From a virus, in the IMG/VR virus record IMGVR_UViG_3300020201_000015, positions 25,370-89,369 of that record: a stretch of 64,000 bases of DNA; one strand, 5' to 3'. A program made the translations under genes and the position numbers. Below are positions 13,814 through 64,000 of this stretch, in pieces (the stretch's first letter is position 1; every line of letters begins with the position of its first letter). The notes below the pieces were generated by a model. The model saw nothing but the letters and a program-made list of their open reading frames with translations. It made no database searches and was not told the DNA's origin.

Positions 13814-13878
13814 CGGGCGCTGATCGCCTACGACGCGCGTCGTGGGCGATAGGGACCCAATCACTGGAGACTGACATC

Positions 13879-15248: not shown

Positions 15249-15601
15249 CGCCCGAGGCGTTTCGGGACGTCGCCATCGCCGCAATCGAGCGGCAGATCGC
15301 GGCAGGGTCGAGGCTCATTCACATGGCGTGGGGCCGCGCAGGTGACCCAGGTTGCCCGGTGGAGTGCGGGTGCGCGCTGACGCTGGTCGCGCAGGACATG
15401 GATCCGGATCGGGCGCGCGCGATGGTCGCCGGCACGTTGTCGGACTGCGCGGTCATCCAGCTATCAGCGGATGCCATTGGCCTGTCGTGGGACCAGGCGA
15501 ATTGTTTTATGGATGGGTTTGATAACGACGCGTACCCAAACATGGGCGTATGGTACGCGGCAGGCGTCGCCATTGCCTGGCGGTTCAAGGGTGCGTCATG
15601 A
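15245..15601 (+). CDS. paralog family protein
   Basis: Same motifs as 14850-15248. Confidence 0.7.
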   Translation: MTPEAFRDVAIAAIERQIAAGSRLIHMAWGRAGDPGCPVECGCALTLVAQDMDPDRARAMVAGTLSDCAVIQLSADAIGLSWDQANCFMDGFDNDAYPNMGVWYAAGVAIAWRFKGAS

Positions 15602-16005
15602 CGCCCGAGCAGTTTCGTGACTTGGCGATTGCGGCAATCGAGCGGCAGATCGCAGCAGGCGTGCAGCTCGTCTGGCATCACTGGGGCGTCACCGACGTCG
15701 ACGGCGCCTCGCTGACGTGCGGGTGCGCGATCACCTTGGCCGTTCAGGAAGCAGACCCAGCTGCGGCGCTGGTGGTGGCACTGAGCAGCAGCTCGCCAGA
15801 ACAGCGGTTCGCCGCCGCGGCTACGGCGCTCGGGCTGACGCCAGAGCAGGTCGAGCTTTTCGTCGGCGGTTTCGACGACCCGACCGCCTTCGGCGAGCCG
15901 TCTGATGACCCGTGGTTCCTCGCCGGCGCCGCCGTGGCGGCGCGCTTCGCTCCTGTGGCGACCATCGAGTCTCTCGTGCTCGGGACCATGCAGGCATTGC
16001 CATGA
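15598..16005 (+). CDS. paralog family protein
   Basis: 15599-15653 is identical to 14851-14905. Confidence 0.7.
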   Translation: MTPEQFRDLAIAAIERQIAAGVQLVWHHWGVTDVDGASLTCGCAITLAVQEADPAAALVVALSSSSPEQRFAAAATALGLTPEQVELFVGGFDDPTAFGEPSDDPWFLAGAAVAARFAPVATIESLVLGTMQALP

Positions 16006-17270
16006 CATCGTCCATCATGAACATCCGCCTCCCCAGCGCGAGTAAGGTCAGCCTCGCGATGCGGTGCGCGTACAGCTTCTCACGACACGCGCCACGCATG
16101 CCGTGGGAACCTTCGTCGCCCGCCGCAGAGCACGGCGTGGCGGTGCATTCGCTCGGCGAGGCAATCGTCGAGGCGGTCGTCGAGGGCATCGTCGAGGGCA
16201 TCGTCCAGGCGATGACGGAAGCGATCGTCGATGGCGTCATCGAGTGCTCGCCCGAGGTAGAGCCCTACCGCGACCCGCTTACCGAGGCCATCGCGATGCT
16301 GCGCGCCGAAGGCTGGGTCCTGGCGGCAGAAGTGCCGATGGCGTACTGGCCAGCTACCGGCTCCGCTCGCGCGCTCAAGAAGGGCGGCGGTCATCGGGCG
16401 TACGCCGACGTGAAGTCCCACGAGATGTCGGGGACGGCGGACATCGTCGGGGTGAAGCCGGGGCGGGTCATCGTCGTCGACATCAAGACCGGTCGCAGCG
16501 CACGGTCGCACTCGGCGCTTGAGACCGATCAACTGCGCATGCTGGCCGTTGGGTTCGCGGCCATCTACGGCGCCACATCTGTCGAGGTCGCATTGCTCCA
16601 CGTCGAGCCGGGCGACTACTACCTCGACCGCGGCGAGCTCTACGCGTGGGACCTGGAGGAGACGGCTGACTCGCTGCGCGCGCTGGCCGAGATGGCTGAC
16701 CCTGTGCCGACGCCAGGCATGCACTGCACCACGATGTGGTGCCCCATCCGCGCGGTGTGCCCGGCGACTCTCGTAGCAGTCCAGCGAATCGACGCGGAGG
16801 TAGCGCGCGCGTTCCCGGGCGCGATGACCACGGTCGACAGCGACGACAAGGCCCGTGCGGCTCGCGTCGCGTTGCTGCTCTACGACGAGCGGGCGGACGC
16901 GCTCAAGGCATCGCTTGACGAGTACATCCGGCACCGCGGCGCGGTCGACATGGGCGACGGCACATCGTACGGGCTGACCGTCCAAGAGCGAGAGCGAGTC
17001 ACGCTCGACGCCAGCGCCGTGCAGACGTTGGTCGACCACGGCGCACTCGAGGCGGTCGAGTACCGCACAAGCAAAGAGGCCATCAAGCGCTCGCTCGCGG
17101 CCCGGTATCCAGGCCGTGGTAAGTCGATCAAGCGGTTCCGCGACCTGCTCGATGCGCTTCGGGCGGCTGGTCACGTGAGGACCAGCGCGTTCGAGCGCTT
17201 CGACAGCATCAAGAACAACAGCAAGCAGAGCGACAGCTACGACAGCAACGAAGAGGAGAACGCGGCATGA
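16002..17270 (+). CDS. PD-(D/E)xK exonuclease (RecB/Cas4-like phage recombination nuclease)
   Basis: HGVAVH, GTADIV, VVDIKTG, QLRML, C-terminal CxxxxCxxxxxC. Confidence 0.75.
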   Translation: MTSSIMNIRLPSASKVSLAMRCAYSFSRHAPRMPWEPSSPAAEHGVAVHSLGEAIVEAVVEGIVEGIVQAMTEAIVDGVIECSPEVEPYRDPLTEAIAMLRAEGWVLAAEVPMAYWPATGSARALKKGGGHRAYADVKSHEMSGTADIVGVKPGRVIVVDIKTGRSARSHSALETDQLRMLAVGFAAIYGATSVEVALLHVEPGDYYLDRGELYAWDLEETADSLRALAEMADPVPTPGMHCTTMWCPIRAVCPATLVAVQRIDAEVARAFPGAMTTVDSDDKARAARVALLLYDERADALKASLDEYIRHRGAVDMGDGTSYGLTVQERERVTLDASAVQTLVDHGALEAVEYRTSKEAIKRSLAARYPGRGKSIKRFRDLLDALRAAGHVRTSAFERFDSIKNNSKQSDSYDSNEEENAA

Positions 17271-17710
17271 TCAGCGCAACGGTAGCGGGACGGATTGCAA
17301 GGGACGCAGAGCTGAAGATGGCGGGCCAGACGCAGATCTGCGAGTTCAGCGTGCCGCACCAAGACAAGCGGGACGGCCCCACGACCTGGGTACGATGCAC
17401 GATCTTCGGCGAGCGCGGCGCAAAGCTAGTGCAGTACCTGACCAAGGGCACCAGCGTCGCGGTGAGTGGCAGGCTCACGGTGCGGGAGTACGAGGGCGCC
17501 AAGGGTAAGGGCGTTAGCGTCGAGTTGAAGGCCGACGACGTGGCTCTACTCGGCGGCGGCACTCGCGCAGATGGCGCGGCGACCGGCGGTGGCGACAACG
17601 GCGCATCCCGCTACGGGACGAGCGGCCACGGTGCCAGCGCGAAGCATACCGGCTCGCAAGGAAAGTCGGACGACTTCGGCTACGGCGGCAACGACGACAT
17701 CCCCTTCTGA
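17267..17710 (+). CDS. ssb: single-stranded DNA-binding protein
   Basis: OB-fold pattern, YLTKGTSVAVSGRL, acidic tail ending DDIPF. Confidence 0.92.
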   Translation: MISATVAGRIARDAELKMAGQTQICEFSVPHQDKRDGPTTWVRCTIFGERGAKLVQYLTKGTSVAVSGRLTVREYEGAKGKGVSVELKADDVALLGGGTRADGAATGGGDNGASRYGTSGHGASAKHTGSQGKSDDFGYGGNDDIPF

Positions 17711-17776
17711 CTCTCCGCCACCTGTTCCAGCCCGCCCGGCAGCCGCAAGGCCCCGGGCTTGGGCCGTTGAGGCATC

Positions 17777-18106
17777 ATGACCCAGGCCAAGATCGAGTTT
17801 CAGTGCCCCAAGTGCGGCGCGTCTACGGAGGTTTGCAGCAAAGACTGCGAGCGCCGCCGCGGCACCTGCCCAGGGTTCGTCTGCGAATGCGACGACTACG
17901 ACAGCGGCCCCCATCGCGGCCCCGATCACGGCGAGTCGTTTGCCAACGCATGCTCGTGCGCCTGCTGCGGCTGCTGCGGCTGGTCGGGGACGTTCCCGCA
18001 GAAGCCGAAGGGGTTACAGGCATGGGAGAAGAAGGCGCTGGAGGCCGGGTGGTGCCCGCCGGACCTGCGGGCCAAGGAACTGGGGATGAAAGGTGGCGAC
18101 TCGTGA
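17777..18106 (+). CDS. Cys-rich Zn-binding protein
   Basis: CPKCG, CECD, CACCGCCG. Confidence 0.55.
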   Translation: MTQAKIEFQCPKCGASTEVCSKDCERRRGTCPGFVCECDDYDSGPHRGPDHGESFANACSCACCGCCGWSGTFPQKPKGLQAWEKKALEAGWCPPDLRAKELGMKGGDS

Positions 18107-18492
18107 CTGCAACCGAAGACATTCGCGCCCTACCGTTGTCCGTCGACGTGGAACTCGTGTTCGAGATTGAGCCGGCGACACACGCCAACGAGCCGAACGA
18201 ACTGCGGCAGCAGTTGGCTAAGGCGCGAGCGCAGCGCGATGCCGTGGTGCATGCGGTAGGCGCAGGGTCGGTAGATCCTGACGTAGTAGCAGAGGCCATA
18301 GGCGTGTTGCGGTCGATGCGCGCAGCGAAAGAGAAGGCCGACGCTGATCGTGACGAGGCGCGTAGGCAACTCGCGATCGTCGAGGTCGAGCGCGACGAGG
18401 CGCTGGCGAAGCTCGATGCGGCGCGAGCGATGGTGCGACTGACCCTCGCGGACGCAGTCGACTACGTGGCCGAGTGCGACCTCGTGCCATGA
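18103..18492 (+). CDS. coiled-coil hypothetical protein
   Basis: Coupled ORF with xRDEA repeats. Confidence 0.5.
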   Translation: MTATEDIRALPLSVDVELVFEIEPATHANEPNELRQQLAKARAQRDAVVHAVGAGSVDPDVVAEAIGVLRSMRAAKEKADADRDEARRQLAIVEVERDEALAKLDAARAMVRLTLADAVDYVAECDLVP

Positions 18493-19541
18493 CTGACGAA
18501 CTAACCGTCGACGAGCGCGCCATCGCGCTCCTGCGCAGAGAGAACGTGGCGCTTGGCGCGATGCTGAGCATGCGCGAGGACGAGCGCGACCATGCCATCC
18601 GCCAGCGCGAGTCGACGATCGAGAGCGGAATCGTGCGGCACCTCAAGCTGCGCATCGAACGTGACGAGGCCCGCGCATCACGCGGCGAGGCCGAGGCCAC
18701 CATCGCCGAGCTGCGCCGCGAGCGCGACGGTTGGGAGCTGGGCGCCGCCGAGCGCGCCCGCGACGACGCGGCTATCCTCGAGGGGCGGCAACACCAGCTG
18801 AAGGCCATGTGCCGCGAGCGCGACGAGGCCCGTAGCGAGCGCGACTCGGCGCAGTCGAGCGAGTGCGAGGTCAGAGATCTGCGCGGCAAGCTGGCCGCCG
18901 TCGTCGCCGAACTCGGGGACATCGCGACCCGCCGCAAGGCAGCACTGCGCGGCGAGGATGCGGCGCGCGCCGACATGGCAGTCGCGTTAGCTGGCGTCGT
19001 CGCCGAGCGAGACGCGGCGCTACTCAAGCTCGTGCTCGCCGAGTCCACCATCGAGGGTGGTCGCGCCGCCGCCGCAGAAGAGCGCCGGCGCCTGTCCGAT
19101 GTGGCAGACGTCTGTACCGAGCAGGTGCTGCTCGCCGATGCCACCATCGACGAGTTGCGCCGCGAGCGCGACGAGGCGCAGGCGAAGCTCGAAGCGGTGC
19201 GGGCGCGTGTGCAGAGCGCCGGAGCGCTCTGGGTCACGTACGAGGTCGCCGACAGGGAGACCGCCGCCGAAGTGGCGGCCGCCTACGCGCTAGCCGAGGC
19301 CTTCGGCGCGATGAGCGGCGAACTGCTCGGCGCTCATGCGGAGCCGCGAGCACATGTCGACGCGATAGCGGCAGGACCGCCTCCGATCTCGGCGAGCTGG
19401 GAAGGCCGCATCCGGAAGCTGGAGGCGGCAGAGCGACAGCGCGCCTGCGCCGACGACGGCCACGCCAGCCACCGCTGGGAGCAGGACCCGAGCACCGGCT
19501 GGCTCCTGTGCCTCCGATGCGGAGAAGAGAAAAGTCCATGA
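18489..19541 (+). CDS. long coiled-coil protein with ERD repeats
   Basis: Repeated ERD(E)AR and TIxELRRERD units; C-terminal CLRC. Confidence 0.6.
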   Translation: MTDELTVDERAIALLRRENVALGAMLSMREDERDHAIRQRESTIESGIVRHLKLRIERDEARASRGEAEATIAELRRERDGWELGAAERARDDAAILEGRQHQLKAMCRERDEARSERDSAQSSECEVRDLRGKLAAVVAELGDIATRRKAALRGEDAARADMAVALAGVVAERDAALLKLVLAESTIEGGRAAAAEERRRLSDVADVCTEQVLLADATIDELRRERDEAQAKLEAVRARVQSAGALWVTYEVADRETAAEVAAAYALAEAFGAMSGELLGAHAEPRAHVDAIAAGPPPISASWEGRIRKLEAAERQRACADDGHASHRWEQDPSTGWLLCLRCGEEKSP

Positions 19542-20131
19542 AAACCAGGCCGATCTTGTTCAGCGGACCGATGGTTCGAGCTTTGTTGGCAGGGTCGAAG
19601 ACCCAGACGCGCCGGCTCGTGAAGGCGCGCGCAGCCCCATACGGCGCAGCTGGCGACCGCCTCTACGTGCGCGAGACCTGGTGCGAATGGGCCAGTCGCG
19701 AAGCGCGGTACCGCGCCGACTTTAAGCCTCGCTATGGCGCGCACGAACGCGACATGCCCGGCATGATCGAGCGGGTCGAGCAATGGAAGCCGTCGATCTT
19801 CATGCCGCGGTGGGCATCGCGCATCCTCCTCGATGTCACGTCGGTGCGAGTCGAGAAGCTGCAAGCAATCACCGAGGAGGACGCGCGCGCAGAGGGCCTC
19901 ACGAGGCTCAGCAAGGACGGCGGAAGGACCTGGAAGTGGGGCCTCGCAGACCGAGACGGCTTGCCCGGTACCGACGACGACGGCATGGAGTGGCAGGACT
20001 GGGACGTCGATGCGCGACGCCCTTATGCCAAGCTCTGGGATCGGATCAACGGCGACCGCGCGCCGTGGGAGTCCGACCCGATGGTCTGGGTCATCGGCTT
20101 TCGGCGGGCCGAAGCGAAGGAGGCGAAGTGA
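19538..20131 (+). CDS. ASCH/PUA-like phage protein
   Basis: RPILFSGPMVRALLAGSKTQTRR, GDRLYVRETW, WKPSIFMPRWASR, DPMVWVIGF. Confidence 0.8.
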   Translation: MKTRPILFSGPMVRALLAGSKTQTRRLVKARAAPYGAAGDRLYVRETWCEWASREARYRADFKPRYGAHERDMPGMIERVEQWKPSIFMPRWASRILLDVTSVRVEKLQAITEEDARAEGLTRLSKDGGRTWKWGLADRDGLPGTDDDGMEWQDWDVDARRPYAKLWDRINGDRAPWESDPMVWVIGFRRAEAKEAK

Positions 20132-21168
20132 TGGACTACGACGATCACGAGCAGTACTCGCCGAGGTACGCCTCGGACCAGGCCTACTGGCGAGGCGTGA
20201 AGGCCACTCAGTTCCTTCATCTGGCAGCTGGCTCACCGCTCCCGCATGACGCCGAGGGCGGCGACATCCCGCCCAAGGCGCAGCCCGGTAGCAGCTGCGC
20301 ATCGTGCGGCGCGGTCGCCATGTATCGCCTCGACCAGTCGATATCTGACAACTTCACCACGATGAAGAACAACTCCAGGGCATGGCCAGTGGGCGGCGAC
20401 TCGATCTGCGCAGCGTGCCTTTGGTGCTGCCGCTCGCTCGCGCTTCGATGCGGGCTGTTCTTCGCTCGCCTACCCGACGATCGTGGGCGCGGTGGGATCT
20501 GGTTCACGCCCGTCCGTCCGCTACCAGGATGGGAGAATCCGAAACCCGGCGCCACGGAAACGTGGCCCGTCATGGGTCGCCCGGACCCGCTCGCGGCGCT
20601 GCTCGCCCCGCCTCCGGCCCCGTTCGTTGCAGGGTTCCCTCTCTATGGCATCGACCACGGCGGAGAGGCGAACAGCCAGCGCGTGGTGTGGCAGTGGACC
20701 AACGAGGACGGGACGCAGCGGAGGCACGTGCCGGGCATGTCCGAGAAGATGAAGCTCCAAAAGGACGGCACGAAGAAGCTCGAGACCGTCGGGCCGCTCA
20801 TCAAGATCCAGAGCAAGCACACCGCGCTCTACTGCCGCATCTCCGGGTCCTCGGAGCGCTACCACCTTCAGGTCGACGACGCCCTCGATGTGATGGTCGA
20901 CGTCCCGCTGTGGCGCTCGCTCCTGTCGTTTGCCGAGCCTCTGCTGGATGACCTTCGCGGCGCCGGCGTCGGCGCGCAGGACGCCCGCGCATCTCTCGTG
21001 TCGCTCAAGCCTCCGGCGGGCGCGCCGATATCTCTCTTGTCGACTTGGAGCGCGCGCGTAGCGCCATTCGTTAGGCACGCGTCCGCTTCGTGGTGGAGTC
21101 GCGTGTTCGTCGCACTGATGCCGATGCCTGATCTCGTGATCCAACCCAAGAAAGACCGTGCAACATGA
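20131..21168 (+). CDS. csf1: type IV CRISPR large subunit Csf1 (Cas8-like)
   Basis: CASC..SDNFTT..ICAAC Zn finger, PPPAPF, QSKH; directly upstream of csf2. Confidence 0.7.
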   Translation: MDYDDHEQYSPRYASDQAYWRGVKATQFLHLAAGSPLPHDAEGGDIPPKAQPGSSCASCGAVAMYRLDQSISDNFTTMKNNSRAWPVGGDSICAACLWCCRSLALRCGLFFARLPDDRGRGGIWFTPVRPLPGWENPKPGATETWPVMGRPDPLAALLAPPPAPFVAGFPLYGIDHGGEANSQRVVWQWTNEDGTQRRHVPGMSEKMKLQKDGTKKLETVGPLIKIQSKHTALYCRISGSSERYHLQVDDALDVMVDVPLWRSLLSFAEPLLDDLRGAGVGAQDARASLVSLKPPAGAPISLLSTWSARVAPFVRHASASWWSRVFVALMPMPDLVIQPKKDRAT

Positions 21169-22673
21169 CCACCGTTCGGGATATCGAGATCGCCCGCGCC
21201 CGCGCTAGCTACCTGTTCCGCGCGTTCTGGAAGCGCATCGAGTGGGAGTCTCTCGGGAAGGACCGTCGACGAGGTATCACCAAGGAGGCGCAGGAGGCGC
21301 TGTGGCCGATCGCGCTCTCGTCGCGGTCGACGCTCGAGGTGTGCCGCGCCTTCGCGACGCGCTTCGAGGTCCAGCTGTCAGGTACCGAGTACGACGCGCC
21401 TCCGTACGCTTGGATTCACAAGAGTTTCATCGCCGATGGCACGCCAAGTGAAGCGCGGGCGAACATGCCGCCGGACCACGTCGCTGTGCGATGGGACTTC
21501 CTCGCGCGCACGATTGACTTCGCCGCGCTGCGGCTCGTCGTGCATGAGAACCCGGCGCTGATCATCACGTTCGCCGCGATGGATCCGATCGACGGCGAGG
21601 CAGATCTGTTTCCACTGCCCGATGACGAGGGTGCGGACGGCGCGCACTGGGCCGCGCCGCTCCCCGAGCGGATGATCTCGCCGCGCGTGTTCCGCGCCTG
21701 CTGGACCACGCTCTCGCCGATGTTTCATGGCGCCGACGAGAAGAGCGGCAACGTGCTCACGTTCCGCCGCGAGAAGCGCGTGGACCCGCACACTGGGGCG
21801 ATCGATCTCGTGCCGTTCATCTCTGGCAACGCGTTCCGCGGGCAGCTTCGCGACCGGCTCTTCGGTCGGATGCTGATGTTGCTCGGGATGAAGCCGACCG
21901 ACCTGCCGCCGGCGCGAGCGCATGCGCTCTTCTCCGGCGGCGCGATCGACGCAGGCGCAGATGGCGGCAAGGCAGACGTGACGGCTCGTCGCGCAGCCAG
22001 GTCGCTCGCCCCGGCGTGGGATCTCATCGCTGGATGCATCGACCAGCAGATCATGGAGGGCGTGCTGCGCGTCCACGACGCACACCTTGTCTGCCGCGAG
22101 AACGCATGGCTACTCCACGCGATGCTGTCTCCGACGCTGCCAGACGGCTCTTCGATGCCGCTCGACACCTTCCGCGCCGCGCTCAAGCCGGCTGACGACC
22201 TGACGCAATTGCGGCTCGGGACTCGTCACGCCCACCGCGACTTCGACGCCGCCGACGGCATCCAGATGTTGTGGAACACGGAGGGCATCCTGCCGGGGTC
22301 GCAGATGGTCCACTCGCTTCAGGTACACGGCATGGCTGGTGTTTCCGAGCTGACTCTGTCGTGCCTCGCTGACGTGCTCGCGGACTTTCGCGATGACGCC
22401 TTCGTCGGCGCGCAGACGGCCAGAGGGTACGGGCGGATCGCGTTCGACCCGTATCGATCGCTCGATGTCGAACTGCCTTCGCCAGACGTCTACAGGCAAT
22501 TCCTGCTGGAGAAGGCAGACGAGATCAAGGCTTGGCTCATGGGCGGCAATGGCGGGACACAGGTCGTCGCGGCGGGCGCGTCGACCGGGAGGCGCAGCAA
22601 GAAGAGCGCGGTCGAGGTCGTCACGGATTCGATCGTCACAGAGTCCGCCTCGCTGCAAGGCGGGCTGTTCTGA
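21165..22673 (+). CDS. csf2: type IV Cas7-family backbone Csf2 with an N-terminal small-subunit-like domain
   Basis: TTLSPMFHG, VPFISGNAFRGQLRD, LFSGG, G-rich loop VGAQTARGYG. Confidence 0.85.
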   Translation: MTTVRDIEIARARASYLFRAFWKRIEWESLGKDRRRGITKEAQEALWPIALSSRSTLEVCRAFATRFEVQLSGTEYDAPPYAWIHKSFIADGTPSEARANMPPDHVAVRWDFLARTIDFAALRLVVHENPALIITFAAMDPIDGEADLFPLPDDEGADGAHWAAPLPERMISPRVFRACWTTLSPMFHGADEKSGNVLTFRREKRVDPHTGAIDLVPFISGNAFRGQLRDRLFGRMLMLLGMKPTDLPPARAHALFSGGAIDAGADGGKADVTARRAARSLAPAWDLIAGCIDQQIMEGVLRVHDAHLVCRENAWLLHAMLSPTLPDGSSMPLDTFRAALKPADDLTQLRLGTRHAHRDFDAADGIQMLWNTEGILPGSQMVHSLQVHGMAGVSELTLSCLADVLADFRDDAFVGAQTARGYGRIAFDPYRSLDVELPSPDVYRQFLLEKADEIKAWLMGGNGGTQVVAAGASTGRRSKKSAVEVVTDSIVTESASLQGGLF

Positions 22674-23437
22674 TGTCCTGGCTCCGGCACAACCTGGGGT
22701 GGCTCCAACGCGCCGGCGAGCGATGGGGCTGCGCCCACGCGGAGCCGCTGCGCTTGCGGGCGTGGATGGCTTCTCCGGTCATCTGGGACGCGTACGATGG
22801 GCTGCGACTTGAGGGCGCTCTTCAGTACGCGGTAGTCGCGCTCGAGTCTGGCAGCGTGCCTAGCGACGTCTTCGCCGATGCGCCGCGGGACATCGCCGTC
22901 GACATCCCGATCCCGATCGTCGACGTGGAGATAGGCGGGAGGCGGATCGCGTGCGCCTCGGTCGCCTTGGCTCCGCCATGCGCCATCGAGACGGTGCGAT
23001 TCATCCGCCGGCGAGCGCGAGTCGAGGCGCTTGCTGTCGGCAAGGTGCTGATCTCGGGCGGTCCGTACAAGTCGACGAACATCCCCAAGGCGACGGTGAC
23101 GACGCCGTGGGTCGACTTCTTCGTGCGCGGAGATCGGGCTCGCCTGGCGACGCTGCTCAAGGACGTCTCCTCGCTGTCCGCCTCTCGCGCAGGTGGGCTC
23201 GGCGTCGTGCTCGGGTGGCAGATCGACGATGACCCGGACGACCGGTCTTTGGTCTACCGCGACGCGCCGCAGCGCACGCTTCCGCTGGTCTCGGACGGCG
23301 GCGAGTGGGACCTGCAACGGTTCGACCCGACGACATACGAGATCCGCGAGGCGACGACGCGGGCGCCGTACTGGCATCAGCGGAGCAGGGCGGAGTGCCT
23401 GACGCCTGTGCCCCGCAGAGAGGCGGCGGCAGCGTGA
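22673..23437 (+). CDS. csf3: type IV Cas5-family Csf3
   Basis: PLRLRAWMASPV..LEGAL, GPYKS, FFVRGD, RAGGLGVV, C-terminal RAPYW. Confidence 0.8.
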   Translation: MSWLRHNLGWLQRAGERWGCAHAEPLRLRAWMASPVIWDAYDGLRLEGALQYAVVALESGSVPSDVFADAPRDIAVDIPIPIVDVEIGGRRIACASVALAPPCAIETVRFIRRRARVEALAVGKVLISGGPYKSTNIPKATVTTPWVDFFVRGDRARLATLLKDVSSLSASRAGGLGVVLGWQIDDDPDDRSLVYRDAPQRTLPLVSDGGEWDLQRFDPTTYEIREATTRAPYWHQRSRAECLTPVPRREAAAA

Positions 23438-24189
23438 CGGGTGCCTTCGACCTCCGTGAGCTGCCGTCCTTCGCGTCGGATCCGTGGTTCGCTCCGCCTC
23501 CCGCGTTCGACTCGTGGATGCCTGGCGGGGCATGTGAGCTGCGCATGTCGCAGTCGGCAACGCTGACCCAGGTGCATGGCGCAGTGTCCGCTGTGCTCGG
23601 GGACAGCGGAGTCGACCACGGCCGGCGGTTCTCTCCGTTTGCGCTCGACGTCGACGGTCTCCGGAGGGTGAGGCTGATTCTACACACCGAAGAGGCCGCG
23701 GCGGTCATCGCGCACGGACGGTTTCAGACCATGGTAGGCGACCGGCGGGCGACTCTGAGCGTAGGGCCACTGCAACGCATCCGGGCGCCAGTGGTCCATG
23801 GACTCGGGCCGCGCAGGGTCAGAGTCGAAGCGCTCACGCCGGTGCTGATCCGGCATCGCGTGACCGACGAAACGAGGCCGAGCGGCAAGGTCACGCTGAC
23901 CTATCGGAGCGGCCACACCGACCAGATCGCGAATGCGGTTGGTGTGCAATTTTGCGAGCGCCTCGGGCTCCCATACGTCGAGTTGCTCCGAATGGAACAC
24001 GTCGACTCGAGCACGTCACCTGCGGTGGTGAACCTCGGGCGCAAGATCAAAGGAATAGCCGGATGGGTCGGAACGGTCGACCTGCGTACGAACGGGGTCG
24101 GCGAGTGGCTGCTGCGCGCGGCCGAGATCATGGGGCTCGGCGGACGGACCGCCTACGGCCTTGGCAGGGTGAGGGTCACGCGATGCTAG
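23434..24189 (+). CDS. cas6: Cas6-family RAMP endoribonuclease
   Basis: LTPVLIR, GWVG, terminal GLGGRTAYGLGRV (GxGxxxxxGxG loop). Confidence 0.8.
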   Translation: MTGAFDLRELPSFASDPWFAPPPAFDSWMPGGACELRMSQSATLTQVHGAVSAVLGDSGVDHGRRFSPFALDVDGLRRVRLILHTEEAAAVIAHGRFQTMVGDRRATLSVGPLQRIRAPVVHGLGPRRVRVEALTPVLIRHRVTDETRPSGKVTLTYRSGHTDQIANAVGVQFCERLGLPYVELLRMEHVDSSTSPAVVNLGRKIKGIAGWVGTVDLRTNGVGEWLLRAAEIMGLGGRTAYGLGRVRVTRC

Positions 24190-24479
24190 CTGACGCCGTC
24201 GTGAACGTGATGTGCCACTGCGGGTCAGCTGTCGCCCGTGGCCGACAGCTCTACTGCTCCGCTCGCTGCGCCGAGGTCGCATGGGTCGAGAAAACCACCG
24301 ATCGAGTCGTCGCCGCCAACCGCGCCCGCATCGCTGCCCGTCAGGGCCCGTGTCGCGTGTGCCAGAGTCCGATCGCAGGCTACCGCTGGCGCGAGACGTG
24401 CTCGCGCAAGTGCTACAGGCGGCTCTTCGTTTACCGGCAATGGAAGGAGTGGCCGACGTCTCAAGATCGCTTGCGCTAG
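24183..24479 (+). CDS. small Zn-finger protein
   Basis: Two CxC/CxxC..CSxxC units (YCSARC, TCSRKC). Confidence 0.6.
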   Translation: MLADAVVNVMCHCGSAVARGRQLYCSARCAEVAWVEKTTDRVVAANRARIAARQGPCRVCQSPIAGYRWRETCSRKCYRRLFVYRQWKEWPTSQDRLR

Positions 24480-24500
24480 CGGTATCCTAGCGCGTACAGT
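24471..24500 (+). promoter_or_regulatory. putative promoter with overlapping palindrome
   Basis: TTGCGC-N18-TACAGT; GCGCTAG-N7-CTAGCGC inverted repeat at 24473-24493. Confidence 0.4.
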
Positions 24501-24576
24501 CCTGATCGACTGAAGCGGCGGCGCGGTGCTGATACACCCGCCGCCATGGCCAGACCCTCTTCCAAGGATCCGACTC

Positions 24577-25179
24577 GTGAGTCATAGCACCAGTTACCGA
24601 GTGCAAGTCGGCGACATACAGAACGGCTCCCCGATCGACTTGCTCATGCGCGGCGAGAAGGCCGACATCGTCTACTCGGACCCGCCATGGGGACAGGGGA
24701 ACCTGACCTACTGGCGGACCCACAACGGAGAGCGCGAGCGAGTCTCATGGGTCGACTTCATTGGCACGTTTTGCGCTGCCGTTGTCGCTCACGCGAAGCC
24801 CGGCGCCCACGTGTTCGTGGAGATGGGCGAGCGATGGGTCGACGAGATGGCAGCGATATTTGAGGCGCTAGGCCTGCCAGAGTCTCAGCGCTGGCGATGC
24901 TTCTACAGCAATCCGAAGTTGCCCAACGTCCTGTGGTACTCGGGACCAGGCACCACTGCCAATCCGTCTGGCATGAGCGGGGTGGCGATGACGGCTCACG
25001 TGCTGCGCTCGGTCGCAACAGTCGGCGCTCTCGTGCTCGATCCGTGTTGCGGCAAGGGCATGACCGGCCGCACCGCGATGCGCCTCGGGATGCGCTTCGC
25101 TGGCAACGAGCTAAACCCGAAGCGACTCGCCGTGACCCAGTCGTGGTGCGAGCGCTACGTGGCGGGCAAGACGCGATGA
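24577..25179 (+). CDS. amino (N4/N6) DNA methyltransferase-like protein
   Basis: ADIVYSDPPW (motif IV) precedes VLDPCCGKG (motif I); compact. Confidence 0.75.
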   Translation: MSHSTSYRVQVGDIQNGSPIDLLMRGEKADIVYSDPPWGQGNLTYWRTHNGERERVSWVDFIGTFCAAVVAHAKPGAHVFVEMGERWVDEMAAIFEALGLPESQRWRCFYSNPKLPNVLWYSGPGTTANPSGMSGVAMTAHVLRSVATVGALVLDPCCGKGMTGRTAMRLGMRFAGNELNPKRLAVTQSWCERYVAGKTR

Positions 25180-26048
25180 TCCGCGTCGGCTGCGACGCAC
25201 CTTCCAAGCTTACAACGGTTGCGTCGACCATCGCCAGCACGGGCGCACGCAAGGTGGTAGCGATCTCGCCAGCCAGGTTCCGCCTTGAGCTACCCGACTG
25301 CGGGGCCCTGGTCGAGCACATCGAATGGGCCGAGGTCATACAGTACAAGCACTTCTACCGCCTCGTGCAAGAGACCGACTCGTCGACCCTAGTCGTCGTC
25401 AACGAGTGCCTGCGAACGCAGAGCAGGCACGACCTGACGTACAACTGCATCCGTCACTTCCTCAACCAGACGCCGCACCAGGTCATCTTCCAGCGGTTCC
25501 CGATCATCGACTCTCTCGACGATCTCATGACGCTGGTCGACTTCGACACGCGCAGTAGGTGGAAGCGCGAGCCATTCGACCGCGCGATGCTCGCGGACAT
25601 CGACATCGCGGTGGAGCGGCGCGACGTCACGCTAAGTGCCGTGGACGTCGAGACCGACGAGGCTACGCGCGTCGCCTACGGGCGCGAGAAGCGCCGACTG
25701 CTTGACGGCATCGGCCTCAAGGACCCGCACACGATCCCTCGCAACCTGCACCTGATGGCTGGCAAGTCGAAGATGGCAGTGGCCGCCGCCGACCAGCTCT
25801 ACGTCGGCCGCAACGCCCGCCTTGGCATTCGCGGGCTCGAGACATATCGCGACGTCGCCACGACAGAGCCGCGGGACGTCTTCGAGTTCTGTCACAACGT
25901 GATCGACTTCTCTGACTTTCTCGCCGTCACCGGGCAGAGCGTCGTTCGCGCGCTCGTCTCCGATCTTCGAGTTGATCGCTGGTACTTCGACCGCTTCACC
26001 GCTTGGGCACGGAGGGTCAGCGATGCCTACTCAGCGATACTCGGGTGA
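25176..26048 (+). CDS. hypothetical protein, possibly a degenerate helicase fold
   Basis: Coupled between the MTase and the IbrA-like gene; LVVVNEC weakly resembles a Walker B. Confidence 0.55.
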   Translation: MIRVGCDAPSKLTTVASTIASTGARKVVAISPARFRLELPDCGALVEHIEWAEVIQYKHFYRLVQETDSSTLVVVNECLRTQSRHDLTYNCIRHFLNQTPHQVIFQRFPIIDSLDDLMTLVDFDTRSRWKREPFDRAMLADIDIAVERRDVTLSAVDVETDEATRVAYGREKRRLLDGIGLKDPHTIPRNLHLMAGKSKMAVAAADQLYVGRNARLGIRGLETYRDVATTEPRDVFEFCHNVIDFSDFLAVTGQSVVRALVSDLRVDRWYFDRFTAWARRVSDAYSAILG

Positions 26049-27150
26049 GACCGTTCTTGAGGCCGCGCGTAGACGCATGGCGTTCGTGTTCGACTCCTTC
26101 CAGGAGATCATCGTTTCGATCAGCGGCGGGAAGGACTCCACCGTCCTCGCTCACCTCGCTCTCGTAGAGGCGCATCGCCGAGGGCGGCGCGTCGGGATGT
26201 TCTTCCTGGACGAGGAGGTCATGTACCAGGAGAGCGTCGAGCAAGTCGACTACCTGATGTCGCTCTACCCGGAGAACACCAAGCGCATGTGGCTCCAGGT
26301 GCCTTTCCGCCTGACCAACGCGACGTCCGTGGAGGCCGGTCAGCTCGACTGCTGGGCGCCGGGCGAACACAAGGTGTGGATGCGCCCGAAGCGGGCCGAC
26401 GCGGTCAAGGCGAAGCCTTGGGACATCGCCACCGAGACCGTAGCGTGCGCGGCTAAGGGATTCGGCTTCTACGACGCCATCGCCAACTTCGAGCGGACCC
26501 ACCACGGAGCCGCGTTTCTCGTTGGGCTGCGCGCGGCTGGCGAGTCGCCCAACCGGTGGCGCGCCGTCGTGAAGAACCCGATCGACGTCGCCGGCAAGTC
26601 GGTCTTCTGGGGCACCAAGAAGCGCGACAATTCCGTTCTCTACCCGGTCTTTGACTGGAACCACCACGACGTGTGGCGGTACATCCACGACGAGAAGATC
26701 CGCTACTCCAAGGTGTACGACTGGCAGTTTCGCAAGGGCTACGCGCTCAACCAGATGCGCGTGTCGTCGCTTATTCACGAGCGCGCCTTCAAGTCGATCT
26801 GCGACTTGCCAGAGTTCGAGCCCAAGACGTTCGAGCGGCTCAGTCGACGGATCAAGGGCATCTCCATGGCCCAAGAGACCGGCAAGAGCGCCAAGATGTT
26901 CGCCTGTCGGAAGCTGCCGAAGAACTTCCGATCGTGGCGAACCTACCGCGACTTTCTGTTTGCTACGCACTCGGACCAGGCGCGGCGGCCCATCTTCGAG
27001 CGGCGCTTCGCGAAGCAGCTCGACAACGAACACGTGGCCCGGCAGCAATGCCGGCAGCTCATCCTGAACGACTACGAGAACAACCTTCCCGTCGACAACA
27101 AGCCAGACCCGCGAGACGAGACGATCCGCTACTACGAGGAGGTCCTGTGA
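26023..27150 (+). CDS. IbrA-like PAPS-reductase-family protein
   Basis: PP-loop SISGGKDS, FLDEE, LVGLRA.ES.NR, YPVFDW, MRVSS; adjacent to a ParB-like partner. Confidence 0.8.
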   Translation: MPTQRYSGETVLEAARRRMAFVFDSFQEIIVSISGGKDSTVLAHLALVEAHRRGRRVGMFFLDEEVMYQESVEQVDYLMSLYPENTKRMWLQVPFRLTNATSVEAGQLDCWAPGEHKVWMRPKRADAVKAKPWDIATETVACAAKGFGFYDAIANFERTHHGAAFLVGLRAAGESPNRWRAVVKNPIDVAGKSVFWGTKKRDNSVLYPVFDWNHHDVWRYIHDEKIRYSKVYDWQFRKGYALNQMRVSSLIHERAFKSICDLPEFEPKTFERLSRRIKGISMAQETGKSAKMFACRKLPKNFRSWRTYRDFLFATHSDQARRPIFERRFAKQLDNEHVARQQCRQLILNDYENNLPVDNKPDPRDETIRYYEEVL

Positions 27151-27773
27151 CGAAACGACGAGAAGCGTCCGTGCTGAGAATCGACACCGCAGAACAGGGA
27201 CTCGCCGCAGTGGCATCGCGGTCCGTGGAGTACGTCACGGCCGCATCCGGGAAGCGCGTCCCTGTGCCATGCATGTCGACGTGGCTGGTGAGCCCGGCGA
27301 TGGTGGTGGCCAATGGGTACAACCCGAACCACGTACCAGAGGAGAAGATGAAGCTGCTTCGGCAGAGCATCCTCGATAACGGGTTTTGCTTCCCCATCGT
27401 CACGATATGGGACGCCGAGCAGGAAAAGTTCATCATCGTCGACGGCTTCCACCGAAGTCTCGTCGCGAGCGGCGAGTGGCTCGGGCTCGACTACGTGCCG
27501 ATCGTGGTGCTCGACCACGGGCCGCGGCAGCGCATGGCGGCCACGGTGCAATTCAACAAGGCGCGGGGCGTCCACCAGGTGGACCTCGACGCCGAGGTGA
27601 TTCGCGCGCTCATCGAGCAGGGCATGTCCGAAGACGAGATCTCGACCCATCTTGGAATCGATCTGGAGACCATCCATCGGTACAAGCAGGTGACTGGCGT
27701 GGCCGCGCTGTTCGCCAAGGCCGACTACTCGCGAGCATGGGAGATGGTCGACGATGACGTCGTCAGCCCGTGA
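27147..27773 (+). CDS. IbrB-like ParB/sulfiredoxin-domain protein
   Basis: ANGYNPNHV, SILDNGF..PIV, IVDGFHR, TVQFNKARG, C-terminal HTH. Confidence 0.85.
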   Translation: MTKRREASVLRIDTAEQGLAAVASRSVEYVTAASGKRVPVPCMSTWLVSPAMVVANGYNPNHVPEEKMKLLRQSILDNGFCFPIVTIWDAEQEKFIIVDGFHRSLVASGEWLGLDYVPIVVLDHGPRQRMAATVQFNKARGVHQVDLDAEVIRALIEQGMSEDEISTHLGIDLETIHRYKQVTGVAALFAKADYSRAWEMVDDDVVSP

Positions 27774-28578
27774 GCCGCGACTATCCGCGGACGACGTCCG
27801 GGCGTGGGACATCTGGCGCAGGGCTGCGCTGGTCCACGCTCGGTCGCAGCGACACCTGCGCGCTGTTGACAAGGCTCGGCGCATCGTCGCCGACGGGCTC
27901 GAGAAGGCTCCGCGTGCGGCGCTGATGTGGAGCGGAGGCAAGGACTCCACCGCGATGACGCACTTGGTTTGCGTCGACATGGGCGCCGGCGTCGACGTGA
28001 TCAGCGAGAAGGACGACCTCGACTACCCAGGCGAGGTCGAGTACGTGACGGCGCTTGCGGAAGCCTGGGGCTGCAAGCTTCGTATCGTCACGCCAGGGCA
28101 GTCGCCGGTGGCTTGGATGGATGCGCACGCGCACGAGCTTGACGCTGGCGACGACATCCACTCGCGCGCGGCCGGGCTTAGCAAGGCGTGCTTCTATGCG
28201 CTAGTCGAGGCCGCTACGACGTCGTACGACGGCATCTTGCTAGGGCTCCGGCAGGAGGAGAGCCACGGCCGACGGATGAACGCCGCGACGCACGGGGCGT
28301 GCTACCGGCGCAAGTCTGGGCAGTGGACGATCGCGCCGCTCACCTACTGGAGCGGACTCGACGTGTTCGCGTACCTTCTCTCGCGCGACATCGATCCACT
28401 GCACGTCTACCGATGCATCGCGTTCATGCACGCGCGCGAGCCATGGCGACTGCGCAAGTCGTGGTGGATACCAGGCGCGAGCTCGCGGCACGGAGGGACA
28501 GCCTGGCTCCGCCACTACTACCCGACCCTGTTTCGCCGCCTGCTCCAGTGGATCCCATCTGAGCGGTCGTTTACCTAG
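27754..28578 (+). CDS. CysH-like PAPS-reductase-family protein (type IV-B associated type)
   Basis: WSGGKDS, LGLRQEESHGR, PLTYWSGLDVFAYL, WLRHYYP. Confidence 0.8.
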   Translation: MTSSAREPRLSADDVRAWDIWRRAALVHARSQRHLRAVDKARRIVADGLEKAPRAALMWSGGKDSTAMTHLVCVDMGAGVDVISEKDDLDYPGEVEYVTALAEAWGCKLRIVTPGQSPVAWMDAHAHELDAGDDIHSRAAGLSKACFYALVEAATTSYDGILLGLRQEESHGRRMNAATHGACYRRKSGQWTIAPLTYWSGLDVFAYLLSRDIDPLHVYRCIAFMHAREPWRLRKSWWIPGASSRHGGTAWLRHYYPTLFRRLLQWIPSERSFT

Positions 28579-28626
28579 CCTTTCCGAGGCCTTGCGGGCG
28601 AGTCGAGGAAAGATCGTCGAAACACC

Positions 28627-28698
28627 TTGCACGGGGTACGTGCCGGGTGCATACTCCTCTTGCCACCGAGACACGGACCCCCCGAAAGGACCCCGACC
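28627..28698 (+). promoter_or_regulatory. repeated early promoter + leader, copy 2
   Basis: TTGCAC-N17-CATACT-cctcttgccaccgagacacggaccc..aaggaccccgacc-ATG. Confidence 0.8.
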
Positions 28699-29141: not shown

Positions 29142-29233
29142 GCCTCGACCCTCCGTGTCTGCCTGCCTCCACGAGGCTGGCGGACGCGGGCGCTGAGCCC
29201 GACCTGACACGGACCTAACAAGGACCCCGACCC
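29142..29233 (+). repeat. structured intergenic repeat, copy A
   Basis: CGTGTCTGCC-T-GCCTC-cac-GAGGC-T-GGCGGACGCG hairpin plus GGGC-gctga-GCCC hairpin. Confidence 0.8.
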
Positions 29234-29776
29234 ATGACCACATCGAAGACCGCCGCCGCCGCCAACACCCTCGCACTCGTGGCGCATGCGCGCCGCGTCG
29301 CCAGTATCGGATCGATGATCCGGATGACGGCTAAGCGCTGCGCCCAGGAGGCTCAGTGGGCGCTCGGCAGGGGCGACATCTACGCCTATCACACGCTGCT
29401 CGATGCGGAGACCGCGATTCGCACTCCCCTGCGCATGGTGTTCTTGCAGCCGAGGCCCGCGCCGATCGCGGCGCCGGTCAAGAAGGCCGCGATGAGCGAT
29501 GCCGCTGCACTCGCGGCTGCCGTGGCGGCCGCCGAGGCGATGCCGGAGGAGCGGGAGCGCGTCGCTGTCGACGCGGCCGCCGAGCCGATGGTCCGCCGGA
29601 TCATCGAGGCGGCGGCGCTGACGAGCGCGGTGTGGTGGCCCGAGAGCGAAGAAGAGGACGGCGCCCGCACGGTGGAGCTCGACCTCATTCAGGCGCGCCG
29701 CCTGACCCACGCACTCGGTGCCGCAGGCGTCTCCTACTCCTACAGCGAGGGCATGTAGAAAGATCTGCGATAGTTC

Positions 29777-29845
29777 TTGCACTGGGTACGCGCCCGGTGC
29801 ATACTCCTCTTGCCACCTGACACGGACCACGAAGGACCCCGACCC
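29777..29845 (+). promoter_or_regulatory. repeated early promoter + leader, copy 3
   Basis: TTGCAC-N17-CATACT-cctcttgccacctgacacggacc..aaggaccccgaccc-ATG. Confidence 0.8.
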
Positions 29846-30312
29846 ATGAACGCAATGATCGCACTCGCAAAAATCTCCGACATGCACATCCGGGCGCTGC
29901 ACGCCGACGCGGTGCACGGCAGGGCTGCGACCCTCGCACTGGTGGGGCCCGACTCAGGGCCCGAAGCGGACGTCTGGTACGAAGCCGCTTGCGCCGTAGT
30001 GAAGGTCTACAGCGCGGAAATCTTCCGGCGCCATATCGTCCGCGCGGAAGCCGCGGTGGCGACGTGACCGCCGTCGCCACGCACACCGCAGAAGACTGGG
30101 TATCGTCGATCGTCCCGATCTGTTGGGTCAATGGTGAGGCGCACTCGACTCGGCAAGTCGACGCTGGTCGCGAGGTCTACGTGGCGGTCCTTCGTGGTGC
30201 CAGCACGCGACCGTCTTACGCCTTCTCGCGGCGCGACCTGGCCCAAACCATGCTTGGAACTTGGGCCGGCGATGTGCTGAGCGTCACCCTGCGCTCGGAT
30301 GTGGCGGCCTGA

Positions 30313-30407
30313 GGCCTCGCCTTCCGTGTCTGCCTGCCTCCTCGGAGTCTGGTAGACGCGGGCGCCGAGCCCGACAGACACGGACCCAACCAAGGACCAC
30401 CGACCCC
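30313..30407 (+). repeat. structured intergenic repeat, copy B
   Basis: Same two hairpins as copy A with different loops. Confidence 0.8.
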
Positions 30408-32247: not shown

Positions 32248-32257
32248 CAAACAGTTC

Positions 32258-32336
32258 TTGCATGGGGCACGTACCGGGTGCATACTCCTCTTGCCACCGA
32301 GAGACACGGACCCGGACCCCAAAGGACCCCGACCTC
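32258..32336 (+). promoter_or_regulatory. repeated early promoter + leader, copy 4
   Basis: TTGCAT-N17-CATACT-cctcttgccaccgagagacacggaccc..aaggaccccgacc. Confidence 0.8.
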
Positions 32337-32654
32337 ATGAAGACGACGACGACCCACACGATCACCGAGCTTGGCGACTACGGCGCCCGCGTGCACCGCG
32401 GTACGTTCGAGGTCTTCTGCGCCGCCGGCACCAGGCGCGCGGGTGGGGAGTGGGCGATCGTGTCCCGAGACGGGGAGACCAATACGGAGCCGACGGCGTC
32501 CGTCACGGACGGGCCGAAGGGGCCCATCCCCGGGCCCGTGCTCGCTTCTATCCGCGCGGCTCTCGTAGACCTTCCGCGCTCTGAGCATGAGGAGCGAGAG
32601 CGGATGCGACCACTGGTCATCGAAGCCATGTGGAAGCGCCGCGCGGCAGCCTGA

Positions 32655-32739
32655 GGCCTCGCCTTCCGTGTCCGCCCGCCTCATCGGAGGCTGGTAGACG
32701 CGGGCGCTGAGCCCGACCCCCGAAGAAGGACTGACCCCC
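32655..32739 (+). repeat. structured intergenic repeat, copy C
   Basis: Same two hairpins; lacks the downstream GACACGGA. Confidence 0.8.
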
Positions 32740-63956: not shown

Positions 63957-64000
63957 GATCGACGTCAGGCGAGGGGTCTCGCCAATCGGCGCAGCTGGAC

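Follow-up and report, generated by a model that had tools for sequence, protein, structure and literature searches.

A phage-encoded type IV-B CRISPR-Cas variant with a Cas11-Csf2 fusion, a Cas6 and an IbrA/IbrB cassette beside its CysH-like gene

For the type IV-B system of Mycobacterium sp. JS623, which is located on a megaplasmid, the description of the solved complex (7JHY; PMC7937560) gives Csf1, Cas11, Csf2, Csf3 and a CysH-like gene, and neither an array nor adaptation genes, a helicase or a nuclease. The structure contains six Csf2 chains of 300 amino acids (aa), five Cas11 chains and RNA, and its authors set the type IV Cas11 fold apart from other small subunits (PMC7937560). The occurrence of IV-B on prophages was noted by Pinilla-Redondo et al., who also counted 12 IV-B loci with a Cas6 and listed them in their Supplementary Data S1 (PMC7038947), and IV-B is known in archaeal viruses from a paper that cites type IV in lytic phages as well (PMC10848311). 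Here we analyze a stretch of viral DNA of 64,000 nucleotides (nt), called the window in the following, which comprises bases 25370-89369 of the 89,369-bp IMG/VR record IMGVR_UViG_3300020201_000015. At window positions 20131-28578 it carries a run of ten genes that can be regarded with high confidence, judging from sequence profiles and structural models, as a phage IV-B variant consisting of Csf1, a Cas11-Csf2 fusion, Csf3, a CysH-like protein and, as a rare component, a Cas6. Compared to the system of JS623, Cas11 forms one protein with Csf2, a Cas6 and a zinc-ribbon protein are present in addition, a four-gene cassette with IbrA- and IbrB-like proteins (IbrAB cassette) lies between csf3 and cysH, and the carrier is a tailed phage genome of the lytic type instead of a megaplasmid. 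The ten genes and the repeat that follows them are (window coordinates):

20131-21168, plus strand: csf1 (Cas8-like large subunit), 345 aa; PADLOC typeIV_Cas8 at E 9.7e-8, residues 46-171
21165-22673, plus strand: cas11-csf2 fusion, 502 aa; PADLOC typeIV_Cas7 at E 3.3e-43, residues 177-458 only
22673-23437, plus strand: csf3 (Cas5), 254 aa; PADLOC typeIV_Cas5 at E 2.6e-26
23434-24189, plus strand: cas6, 251 aa; PADLOC at E 7.4e-8, Pfam PF10040 CRISPR_Cas6 at 25.4 bits (cut-off 25)
24183-24479, plus strand: small double zinc-ribbon protein, 98 aa; two Cys4 motifs (CxC or CxxC, then CSxxC)
24526-25179, plus strand: amino (N6A/N4C-type) methyltransferase, 217 aa; PF01555 N6_N4_Mtase at 36.2 bits
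25176-26048, plus strand: conserved 290-aa protein, family unassigned; homologues in relatives
26023-27150, plus strand: IbrA-like PP-loop enzyme, 375 aa; PF01507 PAPS_reduct at 46.8 bits, PF11922 DUF3440 at 29.6 bits
27147-27773, plus strand: IbrB-like ParB/Srx-fold protein with a C-terminal helix-turn-helix, 208 aa; phrog_2159 ParB-like at E 3.6e-43
27754-28578, plus strand: CysH-like (CasCysH-type) PP-loop enzyme, 274 aa; PF01507 PAPS_reduct at 43.3 bits
28626-28698, plus strand: promoter-like repeat R1, start of the following transcription unit and thereby 3' boundary of the operon

The genes were placed with a frame plot of the GC content at third codon positions (GC3) and a listing of start codons. 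All ten genes that a first-pass annotation of the window had claimed at 20131-28578 are present on the plus strand; they are intact and occupy 8.4 kb. Each gene overlaps the next one by 1-26 nt except at 24480-24525, where a gap of 46 nt is left, and the ten-gene run is translationally coupled and forms one operon. The first-pass annotation had further stated that the 64 kb hold no cas1/2, DinG, nuclease or array. This is correct for cas1/2, DinG and the array but not for the nuclease, as a PD-(D/E)XK exonuclease is encoded at 16002-17270. The exonuclease gene is part of a recombination block of AAA_24, exonuclease and single-stranded DNA-binding protein (SSB) genes, and nothing comparable lies beside the related loci. 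The operon itself contains no effector nuclease, and neither Cas1, Cas2, DEAD_2 (DinG) nor Helicase_C is found in the whole 89-kb record.

For comparison, 34 related loci (31 viral and three from metagenome-assembled genomes, MAGs) were compared by tblastn and with profiles of the window proteins, which gives 35 loci including the window. They were found by alignment-based scans; a single-protein scan of viral contigs found none. Since the loci compared also supplied the sequences for the profiles, the figures given in the following are homology counts and not blind tests, and as some of the loci, which were fetched to 10 kb on either side, are cut by contig ends, all absences are upper bounds. 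The loci fall into two groups. Group A, comprising the window, L002-L013 and L033-L035, has the order csf1, long csf2, csf3. Group B, comprising L014-L032, has the order csf2, csf1, cysH, csf3 and a Csf2 that is 25-30% identical to that of the window; the gene after csf2 is csf1 by PADLOC in all four loci tested.

By their scores, the Cas proteins of the window are diverged members of their families. The NCBIfam Cas models stay far under their cut-offs (TIGR03115 for Csf2 with 13.7 bits, TIGR03116 for Csf3 with 28.2 against a cut-off of 140), so that the cas calls rest on PADLOC profiles, fold matches and synteny. On these grounds the four cas genes named by the first-pass annotation could be upheld, with PADLOC matches for Csf1, Csf2, Csf3 and Cas6 and fold matches for Cas6 and Cas11. 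Csf1 has a CxxC...CxxC pair within residues 46-171, and csf1 homologues are located directly 5' of csf2 in 12 related loci. Single-sequence PDB searches with Csf1, Cas6 and CysH gave nothing meaningful.

The Csf2 protein of the window has 502 aa compared to 300 aa in 7JHY and can be divided into a Cas11-like helical domain (residues 1 to about 150), a linker predicted with low confidence (about 150-178) and the Cas7 core (177-458). The length is typical for its relatives in the databases, as about 90 out of 94 have roughly 430-530 aa and are covered in their N-terminal part, too; every one of the 94 is named only "hypothetical protein". The AlphaFold2 (AF2) model of residues 1-178, built on a 13-sequence alignment, has a predicted local distance difference test (pLDDT) of 89 and a predicted TM-score (pTM) of 0.81. 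In an exhaustive structural search with VIA-align, chain 7jhy_h came out on top with Z 8.7, a root-mean-square deviation of 3.5 Å and 110 of 143 residues aligned. Since 7JHY is made up of just Csf2 and Cas11 chains, chain h is Cas11. The next row reaches only Z 3.7, and several lower rows are small-subunit-like parts of other Cascades. With the same model Foldseek found nothing at E<=1e-3, and the sequence profile of the N-domain found no Cas11 in the PDB. Searched against 1.84 billion proteins, this profile matched 47 cluster representatives, of which 37 have at least 450 aa and carry the domain N-terminally; most of the other ten, which are shorter, match only in part. Moreover, tblastn found the Cas7 core on 19 plasmids and the N-terminal domain on none of them. 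These plasmids are mostly from Rhodococcus and Gordonia, whose plasmids are the classical home of IV-B. According to the structural model, the Cas11 small subunit is thus present as the N-terminal domain of Csf2. The N-domain profile did not detect the N-terminal extensions of the group B Csf2 proteins, for which the fusion is therefore not claimed.

The Cas6 that the first-pass annotation had seen as retained is supported by Pfam, PADLOC and Foldseek. Its AF2 model (13-sequence alignment, pLDDT 81.8) gave 35 Foldseek matches in the PDB at E<=1e-3, and the best 20 of these 35 are all Cas6 endoribonucleases, with TM-scores of 0.41-0.48; the matches include the Thermus thermophilus Cas6 4c9d_A (E 2.8e-8), the type IV Cas6 6njy_A (E 6.2e-6) and the IV-A1 chain 8rc3_M (7.2e-4). 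The protein has a double RNA-recognition-motif fold with a conserved C-terminal glycine-rich loop of the GLGGRTAxGFGR type. Two histidines, H48 and H62, are invariant in 13 sequences. Because of these histidines, which are candidates for the catalytic residue, and the glycine-rich loop, Cas6 may well be active. In L002, the closest relative, an open reading frame (ORF) of about 625 aa at 12258-14132 has three zinc-ribbon motifs fused in frame N-terminally to Cas6, which ties the 98-aa ribbon protein of the window to Cas6. Beyond the glycine-rich loop, the same ORF continues for about 200 aa whose fold is unknown. What appeared in L002 as a 480-nt gap between csf3 and cas6 was considered as an RNA source and rejected, as it folds like shuffled sequences (z 0.23) and codes for zinc-ribbons and Cas6.

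With regard to the subtype, the profile of the Csf2 core matches the IV-B Csf2 chain 7jhy_e in the PDB with E 1e-15, followed by the IV-C Cas7c with 1.2e-6. No IV-A chain is matched at E<=1, with the IV-A1 entry 8rc3 being part of the fold library. A type IV Cas7 nearest to IV-B, Csf1, Csf3, Cas11 and a cysH-like gene, together with the lack of helicase, adaptation genes and array, is the set of characters expected for IV-B. Only the absence of Cas6, which is typical and not strictly defining for IV-B, does not apply here, and as the presence of Cas6 goes against the IV-B norm the locus is filed as a IV-B variant and not as a canonical member. With IV-A it shares a Cas6-family RNase of its own, the model of which matches type IV and IV-A1 structures. 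However, DEAD_2/Helicase_C, and therewith DinG, and an array are missing, and a Cas11 domain is present. The view of the first-pass annotation that the locus fits neither IV-A nor IV-B can therefore not be maintained, given the Cas11 fused to Csf2, a core nearest to IV-B Csf2, a CysH of the CasCysH type and the 12 published IV-B exceptions with a Cas6.

Two plasmid loci help to place the single parts. On plasmid pRHL3 of Rhodococcus jostii RHA1 (NC_008271.1) a gene of the PAPS-reductase family lies beside csf1-like, csf2 (annotated as RAMP) and csf3-like genes, and the csf1, csf2, csf3 and CysH profiles of the window all match there. The difference is that a separate 144-aa gene, overlapping the start of a 283-aa csf2, takes the place of the fused Cas11; this is the arrangement from which the fusion would arise. 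Cas6, IbrA and IbrB were not found at the pRHL3 locus with the profiles of the window proteins. Plasmid RHOApd of Rhodovastum atsumiense (NZ_OW485605.1) has a IV-B core, a PAPS-reductase gene and, about 1.4 kb away, a cassette with DUF3440 (IbrA) and ParB-N (IbrB). There, however, the cassette is on the opposite strand in the order DUF3440-GNAT-x-ParB, with a GNAT in place of methyltransferase and 290-aa protein; Cas6 is missing, and cas11 forms a gene of its own.

Among the enzymes behind the Cas genes, the CysH-like protein has a conserved SGGKDS motif, and across 21 homologues there is neither an invariant cysteine nor a C-terminal cysteine motif. The CasCysH proteins are described in the same way, as PP-loop enzymes in which the catalytic cysteine of true CysH is missing (PMC8175902), and by its sequence the window enzyme is of this Cas-associated kind. 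When Csf3 and CysH were folded as a complex, the score was 0.40 compared to 0.01 for the best of three controls, with at least 70% contact agreement between runs and a partner pLDDT of at least 88. Among the solved complexes, 58 of 80 pass the mark applied to such folds, as do 2 of 110 mismatched pairs, and those passing at <=0.60 are 7 of the 80 solved complexes and both mismatches; as the Csf3-CysH fold was built on custom alignments, these calibration counts are approximate for it. The model therefore gives weak support to a contact between Csf3 and CysH. The IbrA-like protein consists of PAPS_reduct followed by DUF3440, both above cut-off, matches phrog_2302 with E 2e-76 and has an SGGKDS PP-loop conserved in 12 sequences. 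The ibrB gene overlaps ibrA by 4 nt, and its product has a conserved DGFHR motif, while Pfam ParB_N stays with 20.8 bits under its cut-off of 26.3. In the methyltransferase the DPPW and DPCCGxG motifs are conserved. The front part of phrog_498 (633 positions) is matched by IbrB and its middle part by the methyltransferase, and in L012 both are fused in one 473-aa ORF (11840-13261). A family that spans both and a natural fusion of the two argue, on sequence grounds, that the ParB-like IbrB and the methyltransferase act together.

The 290-aa protein, located directly 5' of IbrA in L002, L017 and L019 as well, has no match in Pfam (even at E 10), NCBIfam, PADLOC or PHROG. In the ESM Atlas it resembles SNF2-rel_dom clusters in features (0.88-0.89) and structure (TM-score 0.64-0.67), with a pLDDT of 0.52 for the Atlas model. 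An assignment as SNF2 ATPase was rejected: the GKT is absent, NEC stands at the expected DExx site, so that Walker A and DExx are degenerate, and the helicase C-lobe is missing, with no Helicase_C in the record. Possibly the protein is a degenerate SNF2 N-lobe, which is given as a lead only.

IbrA/IbrB pairs are also found free-standing in Flavobacterium, Mycobacterium, Streptococcus and other phages, where a PAPS_reduct-DUF3440 enzyme with 33-36% identity over 92-98% of the window IbrA lies beside a ParB-like protein. These phages differ from the window in that they have no match to its Csf2, whereas the window cassette is joined to cysH inside a cas operon. In DNA phosphorothioation a ParB-fold protein, DndB, is likewise paired with a PAPS-reductase-fold ATP pyrophosphatase acting on DNA, DndC. 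The PADLOC DndC match to IbrA (E 2.5e-4) is far too weak for membership, and equivalents of DndA, DndD and DndE were not seen among the ten genes.

The combination of Csf and IbrAB genes is not restricted to the window. CysH is found beside csf genes in 29 out of 35 loci, IbrA in 14, IbrB in 13, the methyltransferase in eight and the 290-aa protein in four; if the three near-identical pairs L003/L004, L014/L015 and L024/L025 are collapsed, IbrA is present in 13 out of 32. The association of cas and modification genes described by the first-pass annotation thus co-occurs in relatives as well. Cas6 is present in eight of the 35 loci, all of group A, and a ninth Cas6 locus with the order csf2-csf3-cas6-cysH is found on L040, a second contig of a Sorangium MAG (779-3505, minus strand). 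The bin of this MAG, which includes L035 and L040, holds two such modules or two phages. In GenBank phages, relatives of IbrA occur in 223 of 50,697 records (about 0.4%), and none of these 223 phages has a match to the window Csf2. Where both csf3 and cysH are present (28 loci), they are adjacent in 18 with a gap of at most 72 nt and separated in ten, and in eight of these ten the IbrAB cassette lies in between, with or without cas6. The cassette is at most 71 nt away from cysH in 10 of the 13 loci with both and 0.4-1.4 kb away in the remaining three. In L017, L021, L028 and L032 it is located between core cas genes (csf1 or cysH and csf3). Between the window and L017, IbrA is 70%, IbrB 60%, the 290-aa protein 49% and the methyltransferase 45% identical, compared to 28% for Csf2 and 32% for CysH. 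As the cassette proteins are far more alike than Csf2 and CysH, the sequences indicate that the IbrAB cassette is mobile between Csf lineages. The IbrAB-bearing loci have a GC content from 0.40 to 0.75. There is also a second cassette type with a gene for about 260 aa between ibrB and ibrA, which has no match in Pfam, PADLOC or PHROG.

As had been proposed from the letters of the window, the system is array-less. No array was found in the window or in the 89,369-bp record by Tandem Repeats Finder (TRF), repeat search, k-mer scan and a mismatch-tolerant 24-mer scan with spacings of 45-110 nt, and when applied to the fetched DNA of the 34 related loci, the 24-mer scan revealed neither a CRISPR-like array nor a mini-array. 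The signals that it gave in two relatives were rejected: the repeat of L008 lies inside a coding ORF and those of L017 are true tandem repeats. The latter are located at 4650-5047, 4.6 kb 5' of csf2, with a period of 60 nt and about 6.5 copies that are 95-97% identical; the 60-nt unit repeats as a whole, which is why it is not a CRISPR array. Rfam gave no match at gathering thresholds and ARAGORN no tRNA. Three conserved hairpin elements of about 60-110 nt lie 3' of cysH at window 29152-29204, 30307-30375 and 32649-32717. Each contains a hairpin that is long and imperfect, with -39 to -46 kcal/mol predicted for the stretch of roughly 110 nt, and a second small GGGC...GCCC hairpin, and all are located between small genes, 5' of ribosome-binding sites and start codons. 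By this position they are probably terminator or leader elements and formally also candidates for a Cas6 substrate. They have no counterpart in the related loci, and the window and the relatives do not share dispersed repeats like R1 and R3.

The carrier is, by its gene content, a tailed phage genome of the myovirus type, in agreement with the earlier description of the locus as phage-encoded. Genes for tail sheath, tape measure and baseplate lie inside the window, and the record outside of it codes for a major capsid protein, prohead protease, Mu-type portal, large terminase, DnaB and a MazG-like enzyme. CheckV estimates 94% completeness, and the GC content is 0.62-0.70. Record bases 17-133 are repeated exactly at 89248-89364 (window 63879-63995), a terminal direct repeat of 117 nt, and due to this exact repeat near both record ends the genome is argued to be complete. 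The repeat is offset from both ends, IMG/VR counts no end repeat, and a 58-nt near-perfect palindrome lies at the record start in the region of bases 1-133. No family match to a protelomerase or tyrosine integrase was found anywhere in the 89-kb record. In a species-level genome set, relatives were found on just three contigs, two from a Myxococcota MAG and the third from a Sorangium MAG, from which a myxobacterial host seems likely. The public runs that contain the stretch are microbial-mat metagenomes from 2018, and in six of them 0.90 or more of the sampled words are present; four of these six are possible sources, perhaps from one campaign, and no RNA runs are on record among those listed. 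When 17 kb were compared to GenBank phages by megablast, no match was obtained.

The R1 cassette is present in four copies (window 11148-11229, 28626-28698, 29770-29817 and 32248-32334) that are 89-95% identical. Each consists of TTGCAC, a partly palindromic spacer of 17 nt, CATACT and a common leader with GACACGGA and a ribosome-binding site, and together they appear to divide the early region of the plus strand into transcription units. A long plus-strand block with the AAA_24, exonuclease and SSB genes starts at 11232, and the operon is within the same block. Since one R1 copy stands in front of the block (11148) and the next directly after cysH (28626), the cas locus is probably the end of a single early transcription unit, 11232-28578. 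The gene 5' of csf1 (19538-20131, one-base overlap) matches phrog_874 of unknown function (E 9e-57), and no csf1 neighbor like it occurs in the relatives. Several further repeats were observed. At record 19152-19867, which is not part of the window, a 356-nt tandem duplication with 74% matches corresponds to two neighboring paralogous genes on the minus strand that code for 119 aa each, and at window 54803-55062 a tandem repeat with a period of 102 nt and 2.5 copies is located between two minus-strand genes of the tail region. Moreover, a family of small paralogous proteins has a common N-terminus, seen as 55-96 nt stretches of 85-100% identity at window 13669-13764, 14851-14905, 15246-15342, 15599-15660 and 34079-34150; these are the 5' ends of four small plus-strand genes (14850, 15245, 15598 and 34078) and a part inside the ORF 13478-13813.

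Taken as a whole, the locus is in our opinion best explained, with a slight balance of probability in favor, as a IV-B variant with Cas6/zinc-ribbon and IbrAB additions that serves as a non-cutting platform for modification. Two additions would have been placed at the csf3/cysH junction, the one being Cas6 with the zinc-ribbon protein and the other the methyltransferase, the 290-aa protein, IbrA and IbrB. By analogy to the solved IV-B complex, the Csf proteins may assemble on RNA, which Cas6 and the zinc-ribbon protein would select or trim. The Csf complex would leave its target uncut and act as a nucleic-acid-binding platform for the attached enzymes, among which the CysH-like protein and IbrA may activate a substrate by ATP-dependent adenylation, and the ParB-like IbrB and the methyltransferase may act on DNA. 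The outcome would be a covalent marking or silencing of phage, host or rival-element DNA early in infection. We infer this mechanism only tentatively, and as a complete chain of steps it is rather doubtful. Several observations weigh against it. Neither the array, mini-array and Rfam searches nor the search for Cas6-linked hairpins revealed an RNA substrate for the complex. Dispersed repeats of a similar kind occur with and without Cas6 and are missing in three of seven related Cas6 loci (L002, L006 and L010), so they do not track Cas6. The solved IV-B complex is reported to have bound heterogeneous RNA (PMC7937560), which fits a scaffold and not a specific guide. The only complex modelled, Csf3 with CysH, is weakly supportive, and the SNF2 likeness of the 290-aa protein comes from the ESM Atlas alone with a low-confidence model. 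Furthermore, IbrA is absent from 21 of the 35 loci within the fetched DNA, so that the Csf/CysH core does not require the cassette, and the 223 GenBank phages with IbrA but without this Csf2 show that the cassette also works alone.

These last two points equally favor the idea that two independent modules just share one early operon, with the cassette being an ordinary phage DNA-modification or anti-restriction unit that came to lie beside cysH just because accessory genes accumulate at this place, without any functional tie to the Csf complex. In line with this, gene order and orientation vary up to the opposite strand on the Rhodovastum plasmid, and the ParB-methyltransferase pairing is a known free-standing phage family, phrog_498. 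However, IbrA is found in 14 of the 35 loci against about 0.4% of the GenBank phage records, the cassette is directly attached to cysH in 10 of 13 loci and stands between core cas genes in four, and it is near-identical in Csf lineages that share only 28% identity, in loci with a GC content of 0.40-0.75. Therefore, we consider such a chance neighborhood somewhat unlikely. A more far-reaching possibility is a full coupling, in which Cas6 and the zinc-ribbon protein cut guides from non-array transcripts, for which the hairpins at 29152, 30307 and 32649 are candidates, and the Cas11-Csf2 filament uses these RNAs to guide CysH, IbrA, IbrB and the methyltransferase to matching DNA. If true, this would be an RNA-guided writer of a covalent DNA mark and thus a programmable epigenetic phage system instead of an immune nuclease, but we regard it as clearly unlikely. 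RNA-guided modification and an anti-CRISPR sponge, both suggested by the first-pass annotation, are hypotheses already published for IV-B (PMC8175902).

The sponge would mean that the phage Cas6 cuts pre-CRISPR RNA of the host, or the Csf filament soaks up guide RNAs, which the CysH-like enzyme then inactivates. A phage that lacks an array but encodes a Cas6 with invariant histidines would suit such a task, and so would a CRISPR-rich host, which is likely since at least three full-length Cas1 genes were found in the Myxococcota MAG that carries a related locus. Such a role has been proposed for IV-B together with a negative correlation between IV-B and other CRISPR systems (PMC7038947), but in the same paper the authors call so complex an anti-CRISPR unlikely. 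Moreover, the profile of the phage Cas6 has its best match in the CRISPR-rich MAG only at E 1.3e-3 and 21.5 bits, so it is no copy of a host Cas6; Cas6 was not seen in seven of the 16 group A loci, four of which are cut near the genes, and IbrB, the methyltransferase and IbrA would be left without a role. It is hence very improbable that the locus captures host RNA. Still a little less credible is that it scavenges CRISPR RNAs from arrays of the host, of a co-resident element or of unsampled members of the phage population and silences rival elements by binding, as IV-A does. Cas6 and a complete set of Cascade-like subunits would be appropriate, IV-A is described to repress without a nuclease (PMC12669027), and an archaeal virus IV-B locus with a mini-array has been reported (PMC10848311). 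On the other hand, there is neither an array nor a mini-array in the 89-kb record, which the 117-nt end repeat argues to be complete, nor was either of them found in the fetched DNA of the 34 relatives, the record contains no helicase, and the JS623 complex is reported to have ignored co-expressed type I-E CRISPR RNAs (PMC8175902).

The literature already describes type IV-B and its CysH partner, the presence of the subtype on phages and rare loci with a Cas6. A literature search, judged mostly by title, found nothing that links IbrA/DUF3440 or IbrB with type IV, and no description of a Cas11-Csf2 fusion. IV-B is among the last CRISPR-Cas subtypes without a known function, and the role of its CysH-like partner as well as the source of its RNA are still listed as open in reviews and in the 2025 classification (PMC8175902, PMC12669027). 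The locus offers a testable lead to this function, as its ten intact genes are compact with 8.4 kb and directly expressible, and the Cas11-Csf2 fusion sets a 1:1 subunit ratio and simplifies reconstitution. A Cas6 with a fused or adjacent zinc-ribbon argues for the use of a specific RNA, in this clade at least. Above all, a second PP-loop enzyme (IbrA), a ParB-fold DNA binder and a methyltransferase recur at cysH across unrelated hosts and Csf lineages, and this recurrent attachment of the cassette to cysH points to nucleic-acid modification as the output of IV-B.

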